This document shows positions 22,129 to 35,932 of a DNA stretch of 37,380 bases, one piece after another. Every line of letters begins with the position of its first letter. Within the stretch, counting starts at the first letter, position 1. The stretch lies in the IMG/VR virus record IMGVR_UViG_2718218398_000011; one strand, given 5' to 3'. Position numbers and translations under genes: made by a program. Origin of the DNA: a virus (taxonomy: Duplodnaviria > Heunggongvirae > Uroviricota > Caudoviricetes). Below the pieces are notes generated by a model. That model saw only the letters and a list, made by a program, of their open reading frames with translations, did not search any database and had not been told where the DNA came from.

Positions 22129-23895
22129 ATGAACACCACACTGACACCCGCAGATCTCGATCCCCGTCGGCAGGCCATGCTGCTGTACTTTCAGGGATAC
22201 CGCGTCGCCCGCATTGCTGAAATGCTGGGCGAGAAAGTTGCAACCGTTCACAGCTGGAAAAAACGCGACAAGTGGGGTGACTATGGGCCGCTGGATCAGA
22301 TGCAGCTCACCACCGCCGCACGCTACTGCCAGCTCATTATGAAGGAGCACAAAGAAGGGAAAGATTTCAAAGAGATTGACCTGCTGGCGCGCCAGTCTGA
22401 GCGCCACGCGCGGATCGGCAAGTTTAACAATGGCGGCAACGAAGCTGACTTAAACCCTAACGTCGCCAACCGCAACAAAGGCCCGCGCCGTCAGCCGGAA
22501 AAGAATGTCTTCACCGATGAACAGATTGAGAAGCTGGAAGAAATCTTCCATTCCTCCATGTTCAACTACCAGCGCCACTGGTGGGAAGCCGGAAAAACCA
22601 ACCGCATCCGCAACCTGCTGAAGTCACGCCAGATCGGCGCGACCTTTTACTTTGCCCGTGAAGCCCTGATTGACGCCCTGCTTACCGGACGTAACCAGAT
22701 TTTCCTTTCCGCCAGTAAGGCACAGGCCCACGTCTTTAAGCAGTACATCATCGACTTCGCCAAAGAAGTGGATGTGGAACTGAAAGGCGATCCGATGGTG
22801 CTTCCTAACGGGGCCACGCTTTACTTCCTCGGCACCAATGCCCGCACGGCCCAGAGTTATCACGGCAACCTGTATCTGGATGAATATTTCTGGATACCGA
22901 AATTTCAGGAGCTACGCAAAGTGGCTTCCGGTATGGCTATTCACAAGAAATGGCGGCAGACCTATTTTTCCACACCATCCAGCCTGACCCACAGTGCTTA
23001 TCCGTTCTGGTCCGGTGCGCTGTTCAACCGTGGACGCAACAAAGCCGACAAGGTGGACATTGATCTGTCCCACAGCAATCTGGCCCCCGGCCTGCTGTGC
23101 GCTGACGGGCAATACCGCCAGATAGTCACCGTGGAAGATGCGGTGCGCGGTGGCTGTAACCTGTTCGACCTTGACCAGTTGCGCATGGAATACAGCCCGG
23201 ACGAATACCAGAACCTGCTGATGTGCGAGTTTGTGGACGATCTCGCGTCCGTGTTCCCGCTCAGCGAACTACAGGCGTGCATGGTGGACAGCTGGGAAGT
23301 CTGGACCGACTTTCATGCACTGGCGCTGCGCCCGTTTGGCTGGCGCGAAGTGTGGATCGGTTATGACCCGGCAAAAGGTACGCAGAACGGCGACAGCGCC
23401 GGATGCGTGGTGGTGGCACCGCCAGCCGTGCCGGGCGGTAAGTTCCGCATTCTTGAGCGTCACCAGTGGCGCGGGATGGACTTCCGCGCCCAGGCTGACG
23501 CCATCAAAAAACTGACTGAACAGTACAACGTGACATACATCGGTATCGACTCAACCGGCGTCGGTCACGGGGTTTACGAGAACGTGAAAGCGTTTTTTCC
23601 TGCCGTCCGGGAGTTTGTCTACAACCCCAACGTTAAAAATGCCCTGGTACTCAAGGCCTACGACATTATCAGTCACCGCCGTCTGGAGTTTGACGCCGGA
23701 CACACCGACATAGCGCAGTCATTTATGGCAATCCGTCGCGCCACCACCGCCAGCGGCAACCGCCCGACCTATGAAGCCAGCCGCAGCGAAGAAGCCAGCC
23801 ATGCCGATCTGGCGTGGGCAACAATGCACGCACTGTTTAACGAACCGCTGCAGGGCGAGTCCGCCAATACCAGCAATATTGTGGAGATTTTTTGA
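22129..23895 (+). CDS. P: terminase ATPase (large) subunit P
   Basis: 588 aa, P2 gpP-like. Confidence 0.9.
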   Translation: MNTTLTPADLDPRRQAMLLYFQGYRVARIAEMLGEKVATVHSWKKRDKWGDYGPLDQMQLTTAARYCQLIMKEHKEGKDFKEIDLLARQSERHARIGKFNNGGNEADLNPNVANRNKGPRRQPEKNVFTDEQIEKLEEIFHSSMFNYQRHWWEAGKTNRIRNLLKSRQIGATFYFAREALIDALLTGRNQIFLSASKAQAHVFKQYIIDFAKEVDVELKGDPMVLPNGATLYFLGTNARTAQSYHGNLYLDEYFWIPKFQELRKVASGMAIHKKWRQTYFSTPSSLTHSAYPFWSGALFNRGRNKADKVDIDLSHSNLAPGLLCADGQYRQIVTVEDAVRGGCNLFDLDQLRMEYSPDEYQNLLMCEFVDDLASVFPLSELQACMVDSWEVWTDFHALALRPFGWREVWIGYDPAKGTQNGDSAGCVVVAPPAVPGGKFRILERHQWRGMDFRAQADAIKKLTEQYNVTYIGIDSTGVGHGVYENVKAFFPAVREFVYNPNVKNALVLKAYDIISHRRLEFDAGHTDIAQSFMAIRRATTASGNRPTYEASRSEEASHADLAWATMHALFNEPLQGESANTSNIVEIF

Positions 23896-24923
23896 TGGGA
23901 AAGAGTAAGAAGAACCGCGCTGTGTCGACGAACCAGATTCAGCACAAAAGCCAGACTTCAGCCGAAGCATTCAGCTTTGGCGATCCCGTTCCTGTTCTGG
24001 ACCGCCGCGAACTGCTGGACTATGTAGAATGCGTACAGACAGATCGCTGGTATGAGCCGCCAGTGAGTTTTGACGGACTGGCGCGAACCTTCCGCGCTGC
24101 CGTGCATCACAGTTCACCAATTGCGGTGAAATGCAACATTCTGACCAGTACCTACATCCCTCACCCGCTTCTCAGCCAGCAGGCTTTTTCACGTTTTGTG
24201 CAGGACTATCTGGTATTTGGTAACGCTTACCTGGAGAAACGCACGAACCGGTTCGGTGAAGTTATCGCCCTTGAGCCTGCTCTGGCAAAATACACCCGAC
24301 GTGGGTTAGACCTGGATACCTACTGGTTTGTGCAATACGGTATGACAACCCAGCCGTATCAGTTCACGAAAGGCAGCATTTTTCATCTGATGGAGCCGGA
24401 CATCAACCAGGAGATCTACGGCCTGCCCGGCTATCTTTCTGCCATTCCATCCGCCCTGCTCAACGAGTCCGCCACGCTGTTCCGCCGTAAGTATTACATC
24501 AACGGCAGCCATGCAGGCTTCATCATGTACATGACCGACGCCGCGCAGAATCAGGAGGATGTGAACAACCTCCGCAACGCGATGAAAAGTGCCAAAGGTC
24601 CAGGCAACTTCCGCAACCTGTTTATGTACTCGCCTAACGGCAAAAAAGACGGGCTTCAGATCATCCCATTGTCAGAAGTCGCGGCGAAGGATGAATTTCT
24701 TAACATCAAGAACGTAAGTCGGGATGACATGATGGCGGCGCATCGTGTGCCGCCGCAGATGATGGGGATAATGCCAAACAATGTTGGGGGGTTTGGGGAT
24801 ATAGAAAAAGCCAGTTGCGTTTTTGTGCGAAATGAGTTAACTCCTTTACAAAAAAGACTTGTAGAAATTAATATTTGGCTAAAGAAAAAAATAATAGCCT
24901 TCAAAGATTATTCATTGAATTAG
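23892..24923 (+). CDS. Q: portal protein Q
   Basis: 343 aa, P2 gpQ-like; the last ~30 codons are AT-rich. Confidence 0.9.
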   Translation: MMGKSKKNRAVSTNQIQHKSQTSAEAFSFGDPVPVLDRRELLDYVECVQTDRWYEPPVSFDGLARTFRAAVHHSSPIAVKCNILTSTYIPHPLLSQQAFSRFVQDYLVFGNAYLEKRTNRFGEVIALEPALAKYTRRGLDLDTYWFVQYGMTTQPYQFTKGSIFHLMEPDINQEIYGLPGYLSAIPSALLNESATLFRRKYYINGSHAGFIMYMTDAAQNQEDVNNLRNAMKSAKGPGNFRNLFMYSPNGKKDGLQIIPLSEVAAKDEFLNIKNVSRDDMMAAHRVPPQMMGIMPNNVGGFGDIEKASCVFVRNELTPLQKRLVEINIWLKKKIIAFKDYSLN

Positions 24924-24957: not shown

Positions 24958-26610
24958 TTACAAATACCGTCTAACACGTATTTTATTAATGCTCGACTCA
25001 TTTCCAATTCTTATCAAAGCATTTCTCGCTTTTTCTCCGATGCGTTTCATTCTTTCTGAACCATTGCTATACCCACCAAACTTAAGAGCAGTAGCTATTA
25101 TTGAATCACCACCATCAAGAATGACTTTTTTAAATAAATCATAGTAGTCATCCTCTGAGGCAGCATCCAATATTTCCTCGTGCCTATCAGACCAACCATT
25201 CTGACTTGATAATTTTATTAGAACATCCTTTATAGAACCATCCAGATTTAAAGTAGTAGAATAATCTTGGATTTTTGACTTTAACTCAGCATCTTTTATA
25301 GGATGAACATTCATGTAAATAGATTGAACATATTCCTTAAGAGCATCATTGCCGTAATTAATAAATTTACTTATTAATTCACTTGCTTTAATATTTTCAC
25401 CTAAATCTCTATACAGTCCGACAACACTATCCAAGTCACTTGGAGTTACATACTCTATCCCACCAACCACCGCTTGATATAGATTATCAATAACCTGATT
25501 TCGGTTATCTTCAAATGAATTATAGAAAAGCTTCCATGCTTCAAACAGTGAACCTCGCTTACTATCACGGATAAGTTCATCATTCCTTAGACTTACTTGC
25601 CTTTGGAAATTGTTCATATCAATATATCCATGCCTTACCATGTCTATAAGGACTTCATCAAGTTCGTTTGTTTTTTTATAATCATATATAAGCAAAGTAT
25701 TAAGCCATTTTTTTTCTTTTCCATCCTCTTTTTCATCACGCATATAGATATTTCTCATATTTCTAATATACTCCAATGATGGTACATCTCCATCTGGAGT
25801 AAATGCGTAATGACTCCAACAATACAAAGTTAAGGAGTGTGCGACTTCATTTGCAATTTTTTCAAAATTAACGTTAATGCCAGGTAACAAGGCTAGCAAA
25901 AACCGCTCTATTTTTTTCAGTATCCTAATATTCTTAATACCCAGGGAAATGGAGTATTTGCTTAATAATTTATGAACATCAGAATTATTTTTATATGCTA
26001 TAACTGCACATTCTTCTGGAGTAGGATTATAGGTAATCTCTCTATCAATAACCTTTTCTTTATAAGTGGAGTAGTCATCCATACCACTTGTCCCGTTATT
26101 AAGTAAAAGAACCACCTTACAATTTTTTTGTTCTTTCAATAAAGAAACCAACCCTAAGACATCTTTCACTTCTAAATTTTTACCACGTCTTTCTAAGTCA
26201 TCTATGACTACAATAACATTAGTAATTGACATAAATGACATTGACTCAAGTGTCGTAGTGAAATTTTTCAAAAAAGGTGTATCTTTTAACACACGAGCGG
26301 TCTTTCTAGTGCAGGATTCAAGAAGCCCCTTTGCATTTTGTGTTGCTGTTTTTAAATTAGGTTTGTTTCCAATGAAATCTTTCGTAATTGTATTTTCAAA
26401 GATGGAGTATTTTAATGCGTCCAATGAATTAACACCAAAAAGAGAGACGTAACTATATCTATTAAATGCAATCTTATTTTTATTTTCCTTTAAGAAAGCA
26501 TTCCAAGTATAGGTTTTCCCAATCCCCCACTCACCCTGAATAGCCATTACCTCAGGTTCTGCAGATGAAATAAAGTCTGACAACTGTTCTTTAATATAGT
26601 CTAATGACAT
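24958..26610 (-). CDS. KAP-family P-loop NTPase (cargo; candidate anti-phage protein)
   Basis: Walker A GEWGIGKT and Walker B VVIDDLERR in KAP-type arrangement; start placed at MSLDYIKEQL, which has GGAGA six nt upstream (track ORF starts at 26640); strongly AT-rich. Confidence 0.7.
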   Translation of the reverse strand: MSLDYIKEQLSDFISSAEPEVMAIQGEWGIGKTYTWNAFLKENKNKIAFNRYSYVSLFGVNSLDALKYSIFENTITKDFIGNKPNLKTATQNAKGLLESCTRKTARVLKDTPFLKNFTTTLESMSFMSITNVIVVIDDLERRGKNLEVKDVLGLVSLLKEQKNCKVVLLLNNGTSGMDDYSTYKEKVIDREITYNPTPEECAVIAYKNNSDVHKLLSKYSISLGIKNIRILKKIERFLLALLPGINVNFEKIANEVAHSLTLYCWSHYAFTPDGDVPSLEYIRNMRNIYMRDEKEDGKEKKWLNTLLIYDYKKTNELDEVLIDMVRHGYIDMNNFQRQVSLRNDELIRDSKRGSLFEAWKLFYNSFEDNRNQVIDNLYQAVVGGIEYVTPSDLDSVVGLYRDLGENIKASELISKFINYGNDALKEYVQSIYMNVHPIKDAELKSKIQDYSTTLNLDGSIKDVLIKLSSQNGWSDRHEEILDAASEDDYYDLFKKVILDGGDSIIATALKFGGYSNGSERMKRIGEKARNALIRIGNESSINKIRVRRYL

Positions 26611-26670
26611 GTACATTCTCCGAGATAGATAGTCATCCATATTATAACCCGAGTACTATCAAAGTAATAA

Positions 26671-26696
26671 GCGCGCGCTCGTATCCCCGCCACGCC
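26671..26696 (-). other. candidate cos site (cohesive-end region)
   Basis: Minus strand reads GGCGTGGCGGGGATACGAG CGCGCGC, resembling the P2/186 cohesive end as I remember it (GGCG[A/T]GGCGGGGAAAGCA.. followed by GCGCGC); a G-rich block in an AT-rich island at the expected map position. Confidence 0.4.
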
Positions 26697-27039
26697 TGCC
26701 CGCTTTATGTAGTGGTTTTCATGCACCTGCACGACATAAGCAAAAGCACGCCAGTTCTGGCTGGCCTCAGCAAAAACGATCCTCTAACGATCATGCGATC
26801 TCATGCGTCATAGTCATGCACAGCCAAGGGAAGCGTAAATCCGTATCTGAATGACCGCTGAAAAGCTAATCATACGGGTTTACAAAGATGAAAGTCCGCT
26901 GTGAGCGAAAAGCGGATATTCCCATTGTTTTATCTTGATCTAGTAAAAACAATACCCCCTTTACAAACAAAAATAATGAGTTACTATTTTCAGCTCCTTT
27001 TAACCCAAAGGTTTATAATTAAAAAGGAATGGCATACCG

Positions 27040-27693
27040 ATGAGTAAATACAAACTTTTCGCACAGCTATCAAGATATTCACTTGAAGCGCAGATTGATG
27101 ATTTCGAAAAATATATCCTAGGAGCAGGCGGCCAAAACAGAGTTGACTTAGCGGAATTAAAAAAAGCATATGAAGATGAAAAAAAGAATGCTCCTGACGA
27201 TTATATTAATTACTTAGAAGACTATTATTCAGAGCAATATGATTTCTTAGTTAACATACAACCAAATATTTTTAATAAATCTGCTTTGGTATCTTTATAC
27301 TCATGCTTAGAGCACAACCTAAACGACTATTGCAATATATGTCAAAGGATTGTAAACACCAATATATCAGTAACCGATTTTAATGGTGATGGCATCCACA
27401 AAGCAAAAAGATATTTAACAAAATTAATGGATATAAACTTTGGCCTGTCACAAGAGTGGCAATTCATGACAGAGTTTAACAAAGTAAGGAATTGCATAGT
27501 TCATGCTAATGGAGACATTAAAAAAATGAGCACAGCTGTAGCCTTAAAAAATATCATTGATAAAACACCTACTCTTTCATTAAACAATGAAAATAATATA
27601 ATAATCTCCTTAAATTATTTAAAAGATACTATCACAAAAATTAGAAAACTCTTTCAATGGTTATATACACATCTGGATCAATCATCGAAATGA
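27040..27693 (+). CDS. hypothetical protein with HEPN-like RNxxxH motif (cargo; candidate abortive-infection RNase)
   Basis: 217 aa; EFNKVRNCIVHANG at residues about 146-158 fits the Rx4-6H HEPN signature; AAGGAA ribosome-binding site; AT-rich. Confidence 0.5.
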   Translation: MSKYKLFAQLSRYSLEAQIDDFEKYILGAGGQNRVDLAELKKAYEDEKKNAPDDYINYLEDYYSEQYDFLVNIQPNIFNKSALVSLYSCLEHNLNDYCNICQRIVNTNISVTDFNGDGIHKAKRYLTKLMDINFGLSQEWQFMTEFNKVRNCIVHANGDIKKMSTAVALKNIIDKTPTLSLNNENNIIISLNYLKDTITKIRKLFQWLYTHLDQSSK

Positions 27694-27942: not shown

Positions 27943-28809
27943 TTAGATGGCTTTGCTTCGATATTCAATTTCTAAAATCGCCTTTGTCATTGCCGCAATA
28001 GTTATAGCTTCTACCATAGTCAATTCAGGCTTGTTCAAGCTTCCGTGTCCAGCAGTAGGTAATTTGTTGCGTAAATCATAAATATCTTTAACAGCATCAA
28101 TAAGATTCTTAGGTAATTTTGACATTTTTTCGAACTGTTTAAAAAAACCACCCAATGACTCATTTGCCACATTCGGGTTTTGAGTGATTTCCTTAGCCAT
28201 AGTTTCTAAAATATTAGAGGCTGCGTGCAGTGCACCTGCCGGATCATTATTATCCAAGCAATTATTCATTCTATCTATTTGCTGAACGATATTTGGGTGC
28301 AATCTTTTTAAGTAATCACTAGCCAATTCTTCATTAAAATTTTTGACACTTTCAAAAACATCGCAATCTAAATAAAATTTAGGATTGACTGACATCCATG
28401 TATATTTCCAATCATTTTCTAAATTATCTTTTTCCGCAATACGCCTGCCAGTGTCCTGATCTATCTCATCAACATATTTACACATATAATCGGCGTAGTA
28501 GTGTAAATATCTAAATGATATTTCTGGGCAAAAATTACTAACTGATGCAAGGCCGCCATATTCTTTTGTAGTAACTGTAGGGACTTCTTCATCACATAAA
28601 GATGAGAAAGTGGTTCTTTCCCAAAATTCGCCCAACTCTTTTTCTTTCCTAGTTGCCATACCAGCTATCACATTGATGCTTGAGAGCAAAACTACACTCT
28701 GATAGTATCGAGGACATCTGTATGAACTAGCATATGGGCATATTGATGATGCTTTACGATTAATACGCTCTTTTTCCCACCAATTTTTATCAGGAATAAT
28801 TCTTTGCAT
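27943..28809 (-). CDS. hypothetical protein with Abi_C-like C-terminal domain (cargo; candidate abortive-infection protein)
   Basis: 288 aa; the C-terminal ~100 aa (ALHAASNILETMAKEI ... DLRNKLPTAGHGS ... ITIAAMTKAILE) resemble the Abi_C/HEPN-type domain as I recall it; AT-rich. Confidence 0.45.
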   Translation of the reverse strand: MQRIIPDKNWWEKERINRKASSICPYASSYRCPRYYQSVVLLSSINVIAGMATRKEKELGEFWERTTFSSLCDEEVPTVTTKEYGGLASVSNFCPEISFRYLHYYADYMCKYVDEIDQDTGRRIAEKDNLENDWKYTWMSVNPKFYLDCDVFESVKNFNEELASDYLKRLHPNIVQQIDRMNNCLDNNDPAGALHAASNILETMAKEITQNPNVANESLGGFFKQFEKMSKLPKNLIDAVKDIYDLRNKLPTAGHGSLNKPELTMVEAITIAAMTKAILEIEYRSKAI

Positions 28810-29297
28810 AATTTAGCTACTATCTCACGAGTGAATGAATGTTTAGCCTTCTGCACAGTTTATCAGTTCCGGCATGCCTACTGCTACCCCACTGATTCAA
28901 CTTCAAGTTATGAGTTAAAGCGATTCGGTTTCGCTAGATGACACACTAGTGTTAATTTATGGATAAAAATTTATCACTTAAAATTAACTAATGCCTGTTG
29001 CGACCAAAAGTGTGCTGGAATATTATTTTCGTCTGACCTATTATCAAGCTAATTATCCAAATTAGAGTTACTCTCATTCATCAGCAACAAATAAATACAC
29101 CTGTTCACTTTCTCAAAGTGTTCCTGTTTTATTTTTAAAGCAAACAACGCCGCCTATTCGTCCGAATGTACAACAAACATCAGGTTCTGACACAAAGTGG
29201 ACGATCACTTATCAAAATGACCGCCCACCTTACACCTCATTTCACTCGTTGCCCAAACTCCCCCCAACAGGATAAATCCTCTTGGGGGCAACGTTTC

Positions 29298-29531
29298 TTA
29301 ATGCAGCCAGCTGTCGTCTTCCCACACCTTCTGCATAATTTTCATCACTTGTTTTCTTTCTTCATCCAGTTGCAGTCCGGTCAGTTCCACACCGTTAGAG
29401 CTACCTTTACGGATACGAATTACCGTTTTTGGATACAGGGGGCGCAGATTGCGGTAAAGCTCGGATTCAAGGGCGTCCAGGGTAGACTGGCTAATCTTCT
29501 GCTCTTTATCGATCATTATTTCAATGCGCAT
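29298..29531 (-). CDS. DinI-family protein (Tum C-terminal-like; SOS-induced)
   Basis: 77 aa from MRIEIMIDKEQ...; DinI-like throughout (RIEI..., ...VWEDDSWL). The track ORF starts at 29603 and overlaps the upstream gene. Confidence 0.8.
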   Translation of the reverse strand: MRIEIMIDKEQKISQSTLDALESELYRNLRPLYPKTVIRIRKGSSNGVELTGLQLDEERKQVMKIMQKVWEDDSWLH

Positions 29532-29541
29532 AAAAGTCACC

Positions 29542-29730
29542 TCAACTGATGACATCCATTGAGCGGTTGTATTCGTGGGTTCTGATCTTTGCCATGAGTT
29601 CATCAGTCAATTCAGAAACCCACTGCAGAGCCAGCCCCTTCTCTTCATCACTACACTCACTAGCCGCTACAAGCTTAAGAAAAAAATCAATGCGCTGGAG
29701 CTTCAAAGACTCCAAAAAATAGTCCTGCAT
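29542..29730 (-). CDS. small SOS-operon protein (possible Tum N-terminal-like antirepressor part)
   Basis: 62 aa from the ATG preceded by AGGAGG; first gene downstream of the LexA box. The track ORF starts at 29832, upstream of the box. Confidence 0.5.
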   Translation of the reverse strand: MQDYFLESLKLQRIDFFLKLVAASECSDEEKGLALQWVSELTDELMAKIRTHEYNRSMDVIS

Positions 29731-29773
29731 CTTTCCTCCTATGACACCACAAGCAATACTGTATGCATAACCA

Positions 29774-29789
29774 CTGTTTATATTTACAG
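29774..29789. promoter_or_regulatory. LexA (SOS) box
   Basis: CTGTTTATATTTACAG, a perfect CTGT-N8-ACAG with AT-rich spacer, overlapping a promoter-like region upstream of the small ORF and DinI-like gene. Confidence 0.75.
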
Positions 29790-29883
29790 TATATAATAAT
29801 CTTACTGATGTAAAACGTTTTTTTACGTTCATCAGCCTGATATGCCTGGTATTATTAAGAGCACGAATTGTTAATCCGCGTAA

Positions 29884-32298
29884 TTAATACAGGTTCCGCC
29901 ACTTATCATCTTCCCACAAACGCTGGTTCCGATAGAAGATACGCAAGCCTGCTCCTGACGGAATACTGCCGCCGCGAAGGAGTAAATCGACCTCTTTCTC
30001 GCTACCATCAAATCCTCTGGACTTCAGCTCATAGACGAGCTGCAGTCGCTGATGGTATGTAATTCGCTGTTTGTAGTCTTTACGCCGTTTCGGTTTAACC
30101 AGGCGTAACCTTGCTGCCAGGTCCCGGCGCTCTTTTTTGCTCATACTGTGCAGGTAATCGTGCAACTCCTTGTCATCCATGCGGGTAATGTCCGTTCTGG
30201 TATCCCCATCAGCTGATTTGTCTTTCCCTTGTTGGTACAAATTTTCAGCAAGGGGACAGTTATTGCCACGAGTCCAAGGGGCGCAAGCGCCCTGGTCGGC
30301 TGCCGCCTCCTGAACGTCAACGGCTTTACGGACCATTTTCCACTTCACTGCATGAGTGCAGATCTTGCCCTCTGCAATGGGTGACCAGATGCCATAAATA
30401 CGAATACCGTGATCGCCATAGGCGGTCGGCTCTTCGTTGATTTCATAAGCGGTTCTGATGAGGTGATATTTACGGGGAACCAGTACGCCGCCCTGCTTCA
30501 TGATGTAGGTGGCAAAGCAACCAGCATCAGCTGCAGCCAGAATGGCATCAAGGCGCGGGTTATCCAGTACCGGCGCACCTGCTTTTTTGTCACCCTGTTG
30601 CCTTGCCGCCTGACCAGCCAGCAATCGCAGTTCACGGTAAGCCTGACGCCCCGGAATGCCAAAGAAGCGGAATTGCTGAACACGATGCAGAGACGCCCAG
30701 GCATTAACGTATTCAGCGTTATCACGCAGAGATTTACCCGTTTCCTTGCTGATCTCGCCAGCCAGACCACGCCCGTCAATGTTCTTACTGATGTATTTCG
30801 CGATGTAGCTTGTTGGTGTACCTTTGCGCGGGTTTATCAGCTCAGACTTAAAGCGTGGTCCTGTGTTATTACCCAGCTCCTCGCGGTCTTCACGAATGGC
30901 AAACTTACGCAACAAAGCAGTAATGGCGCGGCGATCTTTTTTGCGCATAAAACACAACAGGTGCCAGTGAACTGTACCGTCATGATGCGGCTCAGCCACC
31001 CGCACGCCATACCAGCGCAATCCGGCTTTGTACATCGCCTTACGAAATGCAGCAAACATGCCGACCAGATAATCACTGCTTTGTCTTACCGTCGCATTTG
31101 TCCAGGTCGGGTTGGGCCTGCCGTTATTTAGCGTGGAATGGAAACGTGACGGACAGGTGATGGTGTAGAAAACGGCGCAGTCACCGCGCATTTCCGCGAT
31201 AAGCTCCAGACCTTTAACACATGCCATCATCTCATTGCGGCGATGCGCCGGGTTGCTACTACTGGCGTTTACCACGTCCTCCATATCCAGCGTGTCGCCG
31301 TCTTCGTTCACCAGTTCATGAGAACGGAAAAACTCCAGCGACTTACGGCGCTGCTCACGTTTATGCATCACGGCTTCATAGCTGACATAGGGAGATGCTT
31401 TTTTGCTGACCAGGCAAACAGCACGCAACTGCTCTTCCCGCCATTCGCAACGCATCTTCCATAATTTCCGATACCACCAGTCGGCGCACAACATACGCGC
31501 CAGCGAACCCGGAATGAGTTCATAGGGTACGGGTTTACGGCGGTTTCTTTTCCGGCGGAGTTGCTCAAACGCAGGAGGGATGACATCCAGACGCAGGGTT
31601 TCCGCCGCCACCCTTTCCCATGTCTTGCGGATTTCTTCTGGCTTAACGTCATCGGTGGCATACAAATCACCACAAGCTGCATCAAGGCACATGCTCATAT
31701 GTGCGGCAACAAGGGTAGACAGGCGCTTCACCTGATCCTGACTCATTTCAGGCAAGATCAGCAGGCCGTCCAGCCCTTCATGGCTTGCCATAAAACGAAA
31801 AGATGCAGATAGCTGGCTGTCGCGTACATGCTCTAGTCGTTCCAGACATGGTTTAATCGTCTCACGCAAATAGCGGGAATAAGCCTTTGGCCTGCCCAGG
31901 CTGCTGAAGTATTCAATACGTTGCATCAGCGGCTTGCTGATATGGGAAGGCTGGGCGTTAACGTCCGCCAGTATGACCATGTCCGGATTAAAACGCTGCT
32001 GCTCATGCACCAGCTTTGCCCGGCTAATGAGCTTATCCTGCTCCATTTCGCGCTGGACAGGATCACGGGATTCATTAAAGAAATAACGCTCCCAGACCTG
32101 ATCACTCAGTGCCTCGCGGCGCAGTTGTTCCTGCTTGTTATCGGCAGCGTACAGAGTGATCAGGTTTGAAAGCGCAGAAACCGGCGCAACTTCCGCCGGG
32201 TCCAGATAAGGGTTAATCGCCTTTTTCGGGCTGTTCCATGAGAATGCTGCGGCGGCCTCGTTAAAGCCGCTGCAGTTGTTCATATCAGCATGTCTCAT
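29884..32298 (-). CDS. A: replication initiation protein A (rolling-circle HUH endonuclease)
   Basis: 804 aa; HUH motif [11 protein letters not shown] and catalytic-Tyr motif [12 protein letters not shown], as in P2 gpA. Confidence 0.9.
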
Positions 32299-33152
32299 GC
32301 ACGTACTCCGTACACGGCAGAACTATCCACGCCACGCGAAGGATCAAATCCCACCCAGCAGCGCGCCCCAGAAACAGCGATGATTTCTGTTGCAGATTTA
32401 CTCTCACCAGCTGCTACGCCGATGCTGCGTTTTGCCTTGATGTAGTGGTGAGTAAAATTGCGATACAGCGAACGGATCAGGGATGTGTCACTGTTAGAAA
32501 CAATGACCGGATGTCCTTCTGATGACCGATGTTCAAGAACGGATGCCAGGTGATACTGGTCATCTTCAGTGAAACCATCAGTGTGATAGCTGGAAAACGT
32601 ACCGTCATACGGCGGATCGCAATACACCACATCCCCCGCCTTCAACATCGCCAGCGTTTCATCAAAGCTGGCGCAGATAAACGTTGCTCGTTGGGCTTTC
32701 TCTGCAAATGCGCAAATTTCTTTTTCAGGGAAATACGGATTTTTATAATTACCGTAGGGAATGTTGAAATGCCCGCTCTTGTTATAGCGACATAACCCAC
32801 GGTAACCGTGACGATTGAGATACAGGAAATATACCGCTTTCATGAAATCAGTAATTTCAGTTGAGTAATTAAACTCCTGCCTTATGTTGTAATAAGCCAC
32901 CTCCCTGTTTGCTTCCTTAAATAAAACTCTGGCGCGAGATATAAACGATTCACAATCAGCGGCAACCTTTTTATAGAGGTTGATTAAATCAGGATTAATA
33001 TCCGCAACCAGATAGCTGGGATAATCCGTCTCCATCATCACAGCACAGGAACCCGCGAAAGGTTCAACCAGTCGCGGGCCAGCTGGAAGATGTTTTTTCA
33101 GTTCTGACATTACGGCGGTTTTATTTCCCGCCCATTTCAGGATGGTGCTCAT
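32295..33152 (-). CDS. dam: DNA adenine methyltransferase (Dam-like, D12 class)
   Basis: PFAGSCAV (FxGxG-type) and DPPY motifs; start placed at [11 protein letters not shown], overlapping the upstream stop by ATGA (track ORF starts at 33212). Confidence 0.85.
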
Positions 33153-33376
33153 ACAGCACCTCCGTTGTAATGTTTGCCTTTCAGCTCTGCGATTTCCTGA
33201 CAGGTAATGCAAAGCTGCACACCTAGAATGGCGCGGCGGCGTGCTGGCGGAATTGGCGCTTCACACTCAATGCAAAGCACGCGGGACACGCCCGGCGTTT
33301 TGGCACGGGCAGCACGGATATGGCGCTGGCGTTCTTCTTCAACGCGCTGCTGTACGAGATCCATTGCATCAGCCAT
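33149..33376 (-). CDS. TraR/DksA-family C4 zinc-finger protein
   Basis: 75 aa; CIEC...CITC zinc finger; positional equivalent of P2 orf82. Confidence 0.8.
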   Translation of the reverse strand: MADAMDLVQQRVEEERQRHIRAARAKTPGVSRVLCIECEAPIPPARRRAILGVQLCITCQEIAELKGKHYNGGAV

Positions 33377-33615
33377 TAGTGGATCTCCTGCGCTTCGTTC
33401 TGGATTGCTTCAGCAGTTACACGCAGTAGTTCTGCTGCTTCGACGTGGTTTAGCTGGCGGGATGTGATATGACACGCCAGGCTATAAAGGCGAGCTGCCA
33501 TTGCTTCAGCCCTTGCCCGGCGTTCTTCCAGACGAGCCTCTGTCAGTAAAATATTAAGCCCTGCATCATCCGGTCCGGTTTTAGTCTTGAGGGTTTCAAT
33601 ATTACGCATAATCAA
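33376..33615 (-). CDS. hypothetical early-operon protein
   Basis: 79-aa ORF, translationally coupled within the early operon. Confidence 0.5.
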   Translation of the reverse strand: MIMRNIETLKTKTGPDDAGLNILLTEARLEERRARAEAMAARLYSLACHITSRQLNHVEAAELLRVTAEAIQNEAQEIH

Positions 33616-33676
33616 TTCTCCTGAATTTAGATAAAGGGATACCCGGCGGGTTTACGCCATTAATTTCATTAGTTGG

Positions 33677-34018
33677 TTAATTCGGCATGGTTAGCCGTCT
33701 GGGAAATAAGCTCACCACTGCACGAAAATGATTCATTGCTTTAATCAACTCCCGCTTTTCGTCAGTGGTCAGCTCATTAATGCTGATGCTATGACGTTCA
33801 GCTGGAATTTTTGCCATAAAGAATATGGCAGCCAGTGCTCGTTTATTCTGTTCGTTATTGATATCCCGTGGATCACGCATATCTTTAATAAACCGCTCAA
33901 GCTCTGACTCAATATTCAGGCCAAATACTTTCGCCCTTAACTCCGCAATGTGATTAAGTCCATTCAGGCGTTCACCGGGGCTTAATGGAACAGTTGCTGC
34001 AGCGCCATTAATTGCCAT
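33677..34018 (-). CDS. hypothetical early-operon protein
   Basis: 113-aa ORF in the same orientation as A. Confidence 0.5.
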   Translation of the reverse strand: MAINGAAATVPLSPGERLNGLNHIAELRAKVFGLNIESELERFIKDMRDPRDINNEQNKRALAAIFFMAKIPAERHSISINELTTDEKRELIKAMNHFRAVVSLFPRRLTMPN

Positions 34019-34040
34019 ACTTCATATCCCCCAAACGCAG

Positions 34041-34265
34041 CTATCGTTCTTTGTTCTTACGGTAACGCTCAAGAGGAGATACATTTTTTCGTATCGTCTC
34101 TTTAACCTGCTCTCCCCGTAAAAACGTCCCATCCTTTAACGCGAAAAAGTAACTGCCATCGCCCGACAATGACGGATAGCAACAGAGCAAATCATCTTCA
34201 GGTACTGAATAACTCTCCCCTCTGTAACGAAACTGATAAACCACTTCACTTTCTGCCGCATACAT
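34041..34265 (-). CDS. hypothetical small early protein (fil/dhr position)
   Basis: 74-aa ORF; overlaps a second ORF (34136..34432) in another frame, so the true gene is uncertain. Confidence 0.4.
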   Translation of the reverse strand: MYAAESEVVYQFRYRGESYSVPEDDLLCCYPSLSGDGSYFFALKDGTFLRGEQVKETIRKNVSPLERYRKNKER

Positions 34266-34439
34266 TTGGACTTTCTCCGTTTCCTCGTGGTCAATTCAGA
34301 CAGCAATTCATCTTGTGAATGACATGGATGCCAGCGTTTTCCATCCTCACCCGTGATCCAGCCGTGACCGTAGTGCATTGCCGGGCTTTGTTTTACCAGC
34401 AGCGATGCAAATGATGGTTCTTTCGTCAGCATAAGCACC

Positions 34440-34958
34440 TCACAGCAAACCGAATGAAGCACCGAGGCCAGTCACGGTATCAACTGCACTCGCCATCGCA
34501 GGGTTAGCCTGTAAACGGGCCTGCAATGAAACAGCAGCCAACGCCATCAGTCGTGTTACAGAGTTAATGCTGCTGATAGCATCACGACGACCTGCACTGG
34601 TTTTTACATCGCCAGATACCGCACCTGCAGCAACACGCCCGATCTCTGCGGTTGCACTCATGACGTAATGTGGCAGTTTCTCTTTTGCCACCTCATTAAT
34701 TGGTACGCATGGCAGGCAGTGAATCTGTGCCAGAAAACCATCTACCAACGTTGAATCTTCAGTCAGATCGGTAAGCAGCCAGATTTCTGGTGCGGTTAAT
34801 AAATGAGGTTGAGCTGGGTTCAGCTTGTTCCGCAGAATCTGCACATTCATGCCCGCACGTTCTGCCAGTTGCACCAGATTGTGGCGCAGTGCGAATGCAC
34901 GACAGGCTTCATCAAAATGTGGATGTTTGGAAACTTGGTAATCAAACATGGTTTTCAA
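34440..34958 (-). CDS. cII: CII-like transcriptional activator (phage 186 type); could instead be a P2 B-like protein
   Basis: 172 aa; N-terminus ([23 protein letters not shown]...) matches my recollection of 186 CII; sits directly after the apl/cox-like gene. Confidence 0.6.
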
Positions 34959-35013
34959 CTCCGAACTTATCGCAAAATCGAACTCAGCGTCTTATTGCGA
35001 AAATAGACGTCTA

Positions 35014-35217
35014 TTAAGCAGACAAAGCATCAACAGTCAGAGCAGCCAGGTTAATCATTACCTTTTCACGTTTTTTGTCTTTACGAAGACGATGACGAGG
35101 TAGTCGGCCATCAGCCAACATGTCGTTAATCGTATCAATAGAAAGGCCAGTCAGTTCGCTATAACGTTCGATTGTGACATGTGGTGTATTCAGAGTAATT
35201 GAAATGTTAGGTGTCAT
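35014..35217 (-). CDS. Apl/Cox-like small DNA-binding protein (excisionase/repressor of the lysogenic promoter)
   Basis: 67-aa basic protein, first gene of the leftward early operon, divergent from cI. Confidence 0.5.
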
Positions 35218-35362
35218 AAGGCAACATTCCTTCTAGATATGGCTTGTGGCGAGCCGTTGTTTGTCGTGATTAGTAGTGAAGGCTCCAAAAGAACACTTCT
35301 GGTTCAACTTTAAGATCGCTTTTGGAATCTGTCAACGAATTTTGGATTTCTTTGGAGGACTT
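35218..35362. promoter_or_regulatory. immunity switch region (early and lysogenic promoters and operators)
   Basis: 145-bp gap between the divergent apl/cox-like and cI genes; inferred from position only. Confidence 0.5.
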
Positions 35363-35932
35363 GTGGATTTCAATAGCGGCGGTAAGAAAGCCATAGAACG
35401 TTTAGTTGAAGCATATGGGTTCGGTACCCGTCAGGCTCTCTGTGATCATTTAGGTGTTTCTAAGAGCACCATGGCAACGCGCTATATGCGTGATATTTTT
35501 CCAGCAGATTGGGTAATCCAGTGCGCCCTTGAAACGGGCACCTCGCTTAATTGGCTAACAACAGGGCATGGTTCAAAGCAAGCATCAGCAAATACAAATA
35601 CTATAGAAGTAGAAAAATATTTATTGTCTGATGGAGCATTGCAGAAAGACGGTTTTTATATTTTTGATAAGGAATTTCTACCCTCTACGTTTAAAAAACC
35701 TTTTGTCATCACAGATAACAATTCTGAATTTATTTGTGATAAAGAATTTGATGATATACGTGATGGTAAATGGGTAATAAGTATTGATGGCGAAATAACG
35801 ATCCGTGACATTACTCGTTTACCCGGTGGAAGAATCTTCGTCGAGGGTGGAAACAGAGCCTTCGAATGCAAGATAGAAGACATTGAAATAATTGGTAAAA
35901 TTATAAGTTTAACAGTCAAGTATGTTAAATAG
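35363..35932 (+). CDS. cI: CI immunity repressor (phage 186 type)
   Basis: In-frame GTG at about 35363 preceded by GGAGG; LVEAYGFGTRQALCDHLGVS...CALETGTSLNWLTTGHG resembles the 186 CI N-terminal domain. The track ORF starts at 35276. Confidence 0.8.
   Translation: MDFNSGGKKAIERLVEAYGFGTRQALCDHLGVSKSTMATRYMRDIFPADWVIQCALETGTSLNWLTTGHGSKQASANTNTIEVEKYLLSDGALQKDGFYIFDKEFLPSTFKKPFVITDNNSEFICDKEFDDIRDGKWVISIDGEITIRDITRLPGGRIFVEGGNRAFECKIEDIEIIGKIISLTVKYVK

Follow-up and report, generated by a model that had tools for sequence, protein, structure and literature searches.

Orphan enzymes forming m6A in GATC are encoded by several phages of Dam-positive hosts, such as P1, T4 and the Stx phage VT2, and the Dam of P1 has a documented part in pac cleavage. 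Among P2-like phages, the type represented by Salmonella phage RE2010, Fels-2 and Klebsiella phage 4LV2017, together with many E. coli prophages, carries a gene annotated as DNA (adenine) methyltransferase between a TraR-like gene and the replication gene A; on the function of the Dam of Fels-2 or P2-like phages, the literature gave annotation-level mentions only. For the Ec67 element of E. coli Cl-1, a Dam methylase function is announced by the title of Hsu, Inouye & Inouye 1990 (PNAS 87:9454; PMC55184), cited in PMC7826664, and the element hosting the Ec67 retron is referred to as a prophage related to 186 and about 34 kb long (PMC7826664; Dodd & Egan 1996 Virology 219:115). In phage 186 itself, the place directly upstream of A is held by orf84, a PAPS-reductase-like gene of family PF01507. 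According to the curated record of this phage, translation of A appears to need translation to the end of orf84, and the genes of this slot are marked as non-essential.

The window analysed here, a 37,380-nucleotide stretch of DNA from a member of the Caudoviricetes (IMG/VR record IMGVR_UViG_2718218398_000011), carries at 32295..33152 on the minus strand a dam ORF of 285 aa (stop codon included in the coordinates), which begins with ATG at 33152-33150 and ends with TGA at 32297-32295. The gene is not new: exactly the same protein has an existing database entry, ‘dam [Escherichia coli O25b:H4]’, and the PGAP label ‘DNA adenine methylase’ is found among the E. coli matches listed. Recognisable by routine annotation, and with a near-identical homologue published in 1990, the gene carries little weight as a discovery. 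The sequence-only reading of this DNA was silent on the gene being long known and routinely annotated. The interest of the locus lies rather in the example it provides of a general question, namely the frequent presence of a Dam gene in temperate phages whose enterobacterial hosts already have one.

Over the full gene, the window dam is 97.2% identical to those of Salmonella phage RE2010 and Klebsiella phage 4LV2017 (Elveevirus), and the best 30 phage matches range from 95.9 to 97.2% identity, corresponding to allelic differences only; the Fels-2 (Felsduovirus) record also matches. The protein listed in databases as ‘retron EC67 DNA adenine methylase’, likewise of 285 aa and falling in the same 90%-identity cluster, shares 95% identity with the window protein, a figure that applies to a protein named after the Ec67 enzyme by annotation transfer and not to the original Ec67 sequence. 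The window prophage and the Ec67 element are of the same kind, but the former has no recognisable retron and bears near cos a cargo made of a KAP-family NTPase gene and two low-GC ORFs. The Dam proteins of P1, T4 and VT2 are far more distant in sequence, the T4 enzyme matching the window protein at E 6e-18. Phage 186 orf84 shares with the window dam its operon position and a 4-nt overlap with A, while the families of the two proteins, PF01507 and PF02086, are unrelated.

The assignment to the D12-class N6-adenine methyltransferases, made by the sequence-only reading from the DPPY motif, was borne out by the class and subfamily profiles. The protein matches PF02086 over the whole profile (positions 1-253 of 253; E 8e-76; 255.5 bits for a cut-off of 22 bits) and scores 321.3 bits against the ‘dam’ subfamily model TIGR00571 (cut-off 114.85 bits), thus giving full-length matches above the curated cut-offs at both the class and the subfamily level. 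It also matches phrog_56 ‘DNA methyltransferase’ and, over residues 4-260, the solved structures of E. coli Dam (EcoDam; 2g1p and 4gol; E 6e-74). A structure predicted from a 12-sequence alignment was poor (mean pLDDT 53.5, pTM 0.45), too low for a fold search or for an assessment of the C-terminal tail, and the fold assignment consequently rests on the 48% identity to solved EcoDam (PDB 2g1p, 4gol, 4rtj), with which the protein shares fold family and motif order. The AdoMet-binding motif I (FxGxG), encoded at 33048..33065 on the minus strand (EPFAGS, residues 30-35) and aligned to EPFVGAG of EcoDam, lies N-terminal to the catalytic motif IV, the order of the alpha group. In this motif, E30, P31, F32 and G34 are invariant in 13/13 rows of the alignment, and A33 and S35 in the 12 phage-type sequences, E. 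coli Dam being the row that departs at these two. The catalytic DPPY itself (residues 179-182; codons at 32607..32618, minus strand) could be read directly from the sequence; it is invariant in every row of both family alignments and is kept by 78 of the 80 other-species homologues. Membership of the M.EcoGII type of non-specific adenine methyltransferase, prophage-borne in E. coli, was also considered and rejected: M.EcoGII is a beta-class enzyme (PMC7544214), and the window protein has the alpha-class order and is Dam-like.

The residues by which EcoDam reads GATC are K9, Y119, N120, L122, R124, P134 and Y138, R124 being the key discriminator (PMC4417163). Alignment with EcoDam places the DNA-recognition hairpin of the window protein at residues 117-136 (codons at 32745..32804, minus strand), where Y117, R118, L120, R122, P132 and Y136 face Y119, N120, L122, R124, P134 and Y138, respectively. 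Six of the seven contact residues are therefore kept (K6, Y117, L120, R122, P132 and Y136), and these six are invariant across the phage Dam family; the seventh differs throughout this family, N120 of EcoDam being replaced by R118. The window protein also departs from EcoDam by a 5-aa deletion after DPPY and by a different and longer C terminus. Its score against the housekeeping-Dam equivalog model NF008152 (PRK10904) is 290.9 bits, below the cut-off of 441 bits, which indicates that it belongs to a paralogous phage lineage and is not an orthologue of chromosomal dam; the window gene lies in a phage lytic operon and the EcoDam gene in the chromosomal dam operon. The product would be an orphan Dam-type methyltransferase, transferring the methyl group of AdoMet to N6 of adenine in GATC, and the R118 substitution and the post-DPPY deletion may have changed its kinetics or its preference for flanking bases.

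The gene is inserted without any intergenic space between two early genes of the same strand. Upstream, at 33149..33376 on the minus strand, is a gene for a TraR/DksA-type C4 zinc-finger protein (PF01258, zf-dskA_traR, E 9.6e-9; TIGR02419 right at cut-off), whose TGA stop (33151-33149) overlaps the Dam ATG. Downstream, at 29884..32298 on the minus strand, is gene A, encoding the rolling-circle nickase that initiates replication (PF05840, Phage_GPA, E 3.6e-127; same start in the PGAP annotation of strain E189), whose ATG (32298-32296) overlaps the Dam stop. Both junctions, as read from the sequence, are 4-nt ATGA overlaps, which fits the translational coupling named in the sequence-only reading. 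A Shine-Dalgarno-like GGAGG for Dam is located within the TraR-like ORF (33159..33163, minus strand), 6 nt before the ATG, and a GGAG for gene A within the 3' end of the Dam ORF (32306..32309, minus strand), 7 nt before the A ATG. Since the Dam stop overlaps the A start and the A ribosome-binding site lies in the last dam codons, ribosomes ending Dam likely feed the translation of A; translational coupling of Dam and A is thus likely, with phage 186 as a precedent at the same junction. An attenuator hairpin similar to tM1 of 186 was looked for in the first part of A (32170-32225, minus strand), but the folding energy there is not better than that of shuffled sequences (z = -0.39) and the region does not align to 186, so that no such hairpin is proposed.

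The gene order is that of a 186/Fels-2-type early operon of Peduoviridae: cI opposite apl, then cII, small ORFs, genes for DUF5347 and DUF2732, the DksA/TraR zinc-finger gene, a variable slot, A and a DinI/Tum-like gene, on one strand. The same order is present in the PGAP-annotated strain E189 and in the curated phage 186 record, which upholds the location in the early replication operon given by the sequence-only reading. A candidate early lytic promoter (TTGACA-17-TAAAGT; 35307..35335, minus strand), a consensus match only, is the sole minus-strand sigma-70-like site in 29200-35400, and is placed between the cI and apl genes as is the curated pR of phage 186. This pR-like promoter would drive the operon from the apl-like gene and cII to TraR, Dam and A, along which no excess of terminators was detected. 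This arrangement places dam within the early lytic (replication) operon of a P2-like prophage of the 186/Fels-2 type.

No restriction-endonuclease family was detected with Pfam, PADLOC and PHROG profiles among the neighbouring ORFs or the prophage ORFs checked, consistent with the earlier remark that no cognate restriction gene lies nearby. The cargo ORFs match KAP NTPase models and, weakly, Abi_C and HEPN models, which are not endonucleases, and the best PADLOC model for the protein is ‘orphan methyltransferase’ (oMTase; E 6e-112). An endonuclease partner was found neither in the window nor in related loci, the gene being flanked in the 80 other-species loci by early genes of phages or by further genes for DNA modification.

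Among complete E. coli genomes, 1238 of 5426 (23%) carry the dam gene. Inactive homologues, which the sequence-only reading had named as counting against its proposal, were not encountered: among the homologues from 80 species, the 78 complete ORFs are all intact (266-297 aa), and the gene is under purifying selection, with a dN/dS of 0.10-0.13 at a dS of 0.16-0.20. Its setting is also conserved, an A homologue being found downstream in 74/80 loci, even where A is just 30-39% identical. The 4-nt overlap of the TraR-like gene with dam recurs in 50 of 78 homologous loci, and that with the next downstream ORF, either A or an inserted gene, in 43 of 78. Genes found at this position in relatives encode a C5-cytosine methyltransferase, a PAPS-reductase-domain protein, a second D12 methyltransferase, a DnaQ-like exonuclease or a DUF3850/ASCH protein, and some relatives have both Dam and a PAPS-reductase gene. 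Thirteen phage contigs with an A 66-85% identical to that of the window (12/13 at least 82%) and the same cos-flanking sequence do not have any Dam homologue, and this absence from close relatives implies that neither replication nor packaging requires dam. The gene is, on these comparisons, an accessory and exchangeable element of a slot for DNA-modification or DNA-processing genes. What the comparative data add is thus a dam kept under purifying selection, dispensable in close relatives and located in an exchangeable ‘DNA-modification slot’ directly upstream of the replication initiator.

We consider it likely that this dam encodes a functional orphan GATC methyltransferase, confined to the lytic cycle and made together with A, which tops up the methylation of phage DNA and thereby serves anti-restriction. 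Being in an early lytic operon repressed by CI, and having no promoter-like site of its own, the gene should be silent in the lysogen. After infection or induction, Dam would be produced along with the rolling-circle initiator A, providing extra methylase capacity at a time when phage DNA outpaces the scarce host Dam. Progeny genomes would then be packaged with full GATC methylation, which would shield them from those restriction enzymes that Dam methylation blocks and leave no hemimethylated or unmethylated GATC to be targeted. High-copy DNA is limited by the supply of host Dam, and the Dam enzymes of phages have been seen as directed against type II restriction-modification (bioRxiv 10.1101/2020.06.22.160242). 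A role in anti-restriction or supplementary methylation is plausible for the window enzyme, though all hosts known for this phage group are Dam-positive and the benefit of added GATC methylation is therefore not obvious. Restriction enzymes that GATC methylation blocks are not known to be common in Enterobacterales. The composition of the phage DNA gives no signal of GATC avoidance or enrichment that would point to restriction pressure or regulation: its 125 sites correspond to an observed/expected ratio of 0.75, similar to that of other 4-bp palindromes and hence neither enriched nor strongly avoided, and they do not cluster in A or the immunity region.

The prophage gene could alternatively act in lysogenic conversion, a Dam overproduced from the integrated prophage altering the methylome, mutation rate, gene expression or virulence of the host. 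Dam dosage affects host physiology and over-expression of Dam causes strong phenotypes (bioRxiv 10.1101/2020.06.22.160242), and the GC content of dam (46.5%) is below that of the TraR-like gene (56.6%) and of A (52.7%), as is often the case in moron-like genes. Against expression from a prophage, there is no same-strand promoter-like site between the pR-like site and dam, the gene overlaps both of its neighbours by 4 nt, and in phage 186 the operon concerned is repressed by CI. Moreover, dam mutants of Salmonella LT2, a strain carrying Fels-2, have, as far as is known, no GATC methylation, which argues that the prophage copy is silent, and we regard lysogenic conversion as unlikely.

A second alternative, which takes up a control function raised in the sequence-only reading beside anti-restriction, is that the initiation of replication, or cos cleavage and packaging, depends on GATC methylation by the phage enzyme as an obligatory control, in the manner of Dam methylation at P1 pac. 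The physical, and probably translational, link of dam to A would fit such a role, as would the presence beside cos of three GATC sites in 23 bp (26778-26800), two of which (26778 and 26789), at 80-100 bp from cos, are invariant in eight Dam-bearing phages but without counterpart in the aligned right end of phage 186, which has no Dam. This pair nevertheless tracks the A/cos lineage and not Dam, being equally present in the 13 Dam-less contigs mentioned above, so that a specific link of the cos-adjacent sites to the phage Dam was rejected. These close relatives complete replication and packaging with no Dam of their own, every gene occupying the slot in phage 186 is marked as non-essential, and the GATC density in A, which contains the origin in P2 and 186, is average (3.7 per kb). 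A required role of the phage enzyme in replication or packaging is therefore improbable; host Dam being able to supply the methylation, a dependence on methylation as such could still hold.

The departures from EcoDam raise the possibility of a specificity or substrate unlike that of the host enzyme, such as relaxed recognition of the first base, single-stranded rolling-circle intermediates or non-GATC sites. The differences are invariant in the family (R118 for N120 and the 5-residue deletion directly after DPPY), a C-terminal tail of about 25 aa is conserved with invariant W266 and D276, and the 291 bits obtained with the host-Dam model remain below its cut-off. On the other side, the equivalents of R124, L122, P134, Y119, K9 and Y138 of EcoDam are all kept, the 95%-identical protein bears the name of the Ec67 enzyme, which is reported, by the title of its description, to have Dam function, and the absence of the tail in distant homologues (266-277 aa) shows that it is not a family-wide requirement. 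An altered specificity thus seems doubtful, with little probability. It is very unlikely that these lineage features (the arginine in place of N120, the deletion and the tail) would adapt the enzyme to a task beyond the reach of host Dam, such as work on rolling-circle intermediates or recruitment by A, with full methylation, including that of the invariant cos-proximal GATC pair, serving as a packaging checkpoint, or that the enzyme would be a signal for the msDNA (retron) defences carried by the same phage family.

Finally, the proposal that dam supplies the modification activity of a restriction-modification system, with the endonuclease encoded at another place in the element, is effectively refuted: D12-class enzymes are also known in type II systems, e.g. 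DpnII, and PADLOC type II methyltransferase models also match the protein, but the orphan model matches it best, no endonuclease family turned up among the prophage ORFs checked, and the neighbours in the 80 other-species loci are without exception early phage genes or further genes for modification.

The 285-aa ORF at 32295-33152 (minus strand), referred to here as the window Dam, matches the D12-class N6-adenine DNA methyltransferase profile (Pfam PF02086) across its full length (E 8e-76), scores 321 bits against a cut-off of 115 for NCBIfam TIGR00571 ('Dam family site-specific DNA-(adenine-N6)-methyltransferase') and aligns over residues 4-260 with the solved E. coli Dam structures (E 6e-74). 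Motif I (EPFAGS, residues 30-35) lies N-terminal to motif IV (DPPY, residues 179-182, nt 32607-32618), as read from the sequence. The protein is 48% identical to the Dam of the E. coli host (EcoDam), of which residues K9, Y119, L122, R124, P134 and Y138 are kept as K6, Y117, L120, R122, P132 and Y136. In the EcoDam structural work (PMC4417163), Y119 is the tyrosine that intercalates, the first base pair is read by K9 and Y138, the third is contacted by L122 and P134, and discrimination at the fourth comes from a contact between R124 and its G. GATC specificity is strongly predicted from this sequence for the window Dam. The phage-type sequences differ from EcoDam in the seventh contact residue (N120, replaced by R118 in all of them), in a 5-residue deletion after DPPY and in an extra conserved C-terminal tail of about 25 aa that the host enzyme lacks. 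This tail (residues 261-285, 32295-32372, minus strand; W266 and D276 invariant in a 12-sequence alignment) is conserved among homologues of about 59% identity or higher and absent from the more distant ones of 266-277 aa and from the shorter homologues of Photorhabdus, Xenorhabdus and Providencia; the AlphaFold model obtained from the same shallow alignment (pLDDT 53.5) is too poor for judging its order. Because its score falls below the housekeeping-Dam equivalog cut-off (291 versus 441 bits), the window Dam is assigned on sequence grounds to a separate phage lineage of the family. M.EcoGII was ruled out as a relative.

Beyond the host DNA at 1-2619 (grxA, ybjM, ybjL), the window is a P2-like prophage of the 186/Fels-2 type, with an Ogr-like zinc-finger gene and tail genes in its left part, terminase and portal at 22129-24923 and a DinI/Tum-like gene at 29298-29603; an E. 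coli E189 prophage has an identical gene order in its PGAP annotation. The DinI/Tum-like gene is followed by a minus-strand operon listing A, Dam, the TraR-like gene, DUF2732, DUF5347, small ORFs, cII and an apl-like gene, which cI (35276-35932) and the integrase face. The sole sigma-70-like site on the operon strand (35335-35307, minus) is a candidate promoter placed like pR of the related phage 186, and terminator-like sites in the operon region show no excess over shuffled controls. In the curated 186 record, the matching operon runs from pR through apl, cII, fil, dhr, CP80 (DUF2732), CP81 (a DksA-like zinc finger), CP82, CP83 and orf84 to A.

The Dam ORF is intact, from an ATG at 33152-33150 to a TGA at 32297-32295. 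An alternative 305-aa reading is possible from a TTG further upstream; the start annotated by PGAP in near-identical prophages and that of all homologues is one sequence (11 protein letters not shown). Profile matches identify the upstream neighbour as a DksA/TraR-type C4 zinc-finger protein (the TraR-like gene, 33149-33376, minus strand) and the downstream one as a P2/186-type replication protein (A, 29884-32298, minus strand). Both junctions of Dam are ATGA overlaps, and Shine-Dalgarno-like sequences, GGAGG for Dam and GGAG for A, are embedded within the preceding ORFs. These profile matches, motifs, neighbours and overlaps bear out in every sequence-level detail the sequence-only reading, which had described a D12-class enzyme with a DPPY motif placed between these two genes. 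The ribosome-binding site of A sits in the 3' end of the Dam tail codons. Three predicted GATC targets lie within the Dam gene, one of them made by its own active-site codons (GAT CCG, encoding D-P of DPPY, 32615-32618).

The gene is long known, routinely annotated and very common in phages, and nothing new in itself; its identification in the sequence-only reading was real and correctly interpreted at that level. The best 30 phage matches, 95.9-97.2% identical and annotated as DNA (adenine) methyltransferase, take in Salmonella phage RE2010, Klebsiella phage 4LV2017 and many other Klebsiella phages, and a Fels-2 record is also matched. It occurs in 1238 of 5426 complete E. coli genomes, where all the matches listed are annotated 'DNA adenine methylase' and flanked by a 'TraR/DksA family transcriptional regulator' and a 'replication endonuclease', and at least 589 IMG/VR contigs match. 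An identical protein is already deposited as 'dam [Escherichia coli O25b:H4]', in a 90%-identity cluster of 4038 members; among them is a protein called 'retron EC67 DNA adenine methylase', which shares 95% identity with the window Dam. As cited in PMC7826664, the Ec67 element, a prophage of some 34 kb related to 186 (Hsu, Inouye & Inouye 1990; Dodd & Egan 1996), was described under a title that includes 'Dam methylase functions' (Hsu, Inouye & Inouye 1990). Three E. coli proteins of 456-496 aa (P0008, P0009, P0076) carry a Dam portion (72-91% of its length, 94-97% identity) fused to a Phage_GPD domain (PF05954), presumably from rearranged or mis-assembled prophages.

A comparison restricted to one genome per species gave 80 loci with Dam identities of 49-96%, from Escherichia, Citrobacter, Enterobacter, Kosakonia, Pantoea, Erwinia, Photorhabdus, Xenorhabdus, Providencia, Morganella and other genera. 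In 74 of the 80, Dam is followed downstream by an A homologue, including loci where A identity is only 30-39%; in most, it is preceded by homologues of the TraR-like gene, DUF2732 and cII. The 4-nt overlap is the most frequent junction on either side (upstream 50/78, downstream 43/78). Since each of the 78 complete ORFs (266-297 aa) is intact, DPPY is present in 78/80 loci and dN/dS against the window gene is low (0.10-0.13 for unsaturated pairs with dS 0.16-0.20, 0.04-0.19 at larger distances), the inactivation in homologues that would have spoken against a functional enzyme was not observed. One locus (L013, QAKE01000041.1), on a contig labelled 'MAG: Bacillota bacterium', has the usual enterobacterial arrangement cII-DUF5347-DUF2732-TraR-...-Dam-A, and its proteins are 80-89% identical to those of the window; the label most likely reflects wrong binning, not a phage of Firmicutes.

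The position between the TraR-like gene and A is variable among relatives (L010, L015, L018, L019, L024, L028, L040, L042, L044, L049, L051, L053, L063, L064, L079), in which Dam is accompanied or replaced by a C5-cytosine methyltransferase (PF00145), a PAPS-reductase-domain protein (PF01507, 186 orf84 type), a second D12 methyltransferase, a DnaQ-like exonuclease (PF00929, 186 CP82 type), a DUF3850/ASCH protein, a DUF7415 protein or a 250-aa protein with no Pfam hit that by eye resembles a DpdA-like transglycosylase. Together they form an exchangeable DNA-modification/processing module adjoining the replication initiator. The 186 record marks every gene of this slot as non-essential and indicates that translation of A appears to need translation through the end of orf84; because the window Dam holds the orf84 position with the identical 4-nt overlap onto A, its translational coupling to A would have, by analogy, a direct precedent. 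Thirteen contigs among those retrieved via the PAPS-reductase gene encode an A 66-85% identical to that of the window (at least 82% in 12 of them) and no Dam homologue, which argues that Dam is accessory and that phages of this lineage can replicate and be packaged with no Dam gene of their own; this disfavours the control of both processes previously proposed as a possible role. At the 5' end of A, a possible hairpin resembling tM1 scored no better than shuffled sequences.

The best-supported reading is that Dam would act as an accessory lytic-phase GATC methyltransferase supplementing the host Dam during rolling-circle phage replication, with a benefit that we infer. Lambda DNA obtained from dam+ cells is methylated only to about half. 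GATC sites occur in the phage at an ordinary frequency, and the known hosts are all Dam-positive. Host Dam has been described as being in limiting supply when DNA is at high copy number, and the usual view of phage Dam enzymes is that they serve against type II restriction (bioRxiv 10.1101/2020.06.22.160242).

In an alternative reading, GATC methylation would gate packaging. The cos region (26667-26822) comprises a putative 19-nt cohesive-end sequence near 26679-26697, where the phage SEN8 record ends exactly, a minus-strand terminator hairpin (about 26747-26766) and, just past it, a conserved block of repeated GCATG motifs and GATC sites at 26778, 26789 and 26797, a region that might bind terminase or a host factor. 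These three sites fall inside 23 bp, 80-100 bp from cos; the first two are invariant in eight related Dam-bearing phages and missing from the aligned 186 right end. Across 122 contigs, however, the pair follows the A/cos lineage, occurring in Fels-2-type lineages whether or not they carry Dam and lacking in the 186-type, and thus has no specific link to the phage gene. A role of Dam in lysogenic conversion is unlikely because of its operon position and the lack of a promoter-like site of its own.

The orphan status noted from the sequence holds: no restriction endonuclease match was found among the prophage ORFs examined, and the best PADLOC model for the window Dam is 'orphan methyltransferase'. 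The gene for a 560-aa KAP-family P-loop NTPase (24958-26640, minus strand; PADLOC candidate system PDC-S49, phrog_4740), inserted between portal and cos, is probably anti-phage cargo; its 1683 bp have a GC content of 33% and contain zero GATC sites. The cargo at the corresponding site of Fels-2 and RE2010 is different and includes an AIPR family protein whose annotation is prevention of superinfection. Two further low-GC ORFs (27040-27693, plus strand, 30% GC; 27943-28809, minus strand, 35% GC), between cos and the DinI/Tum-like gene, have no PHROG match and only weakly match a DRT model, in its HEPN part (E 1e-5), and Abi_C (E 0.002); their site is a hotspot housing retrons Ec67 and Ec86 in related prophages.
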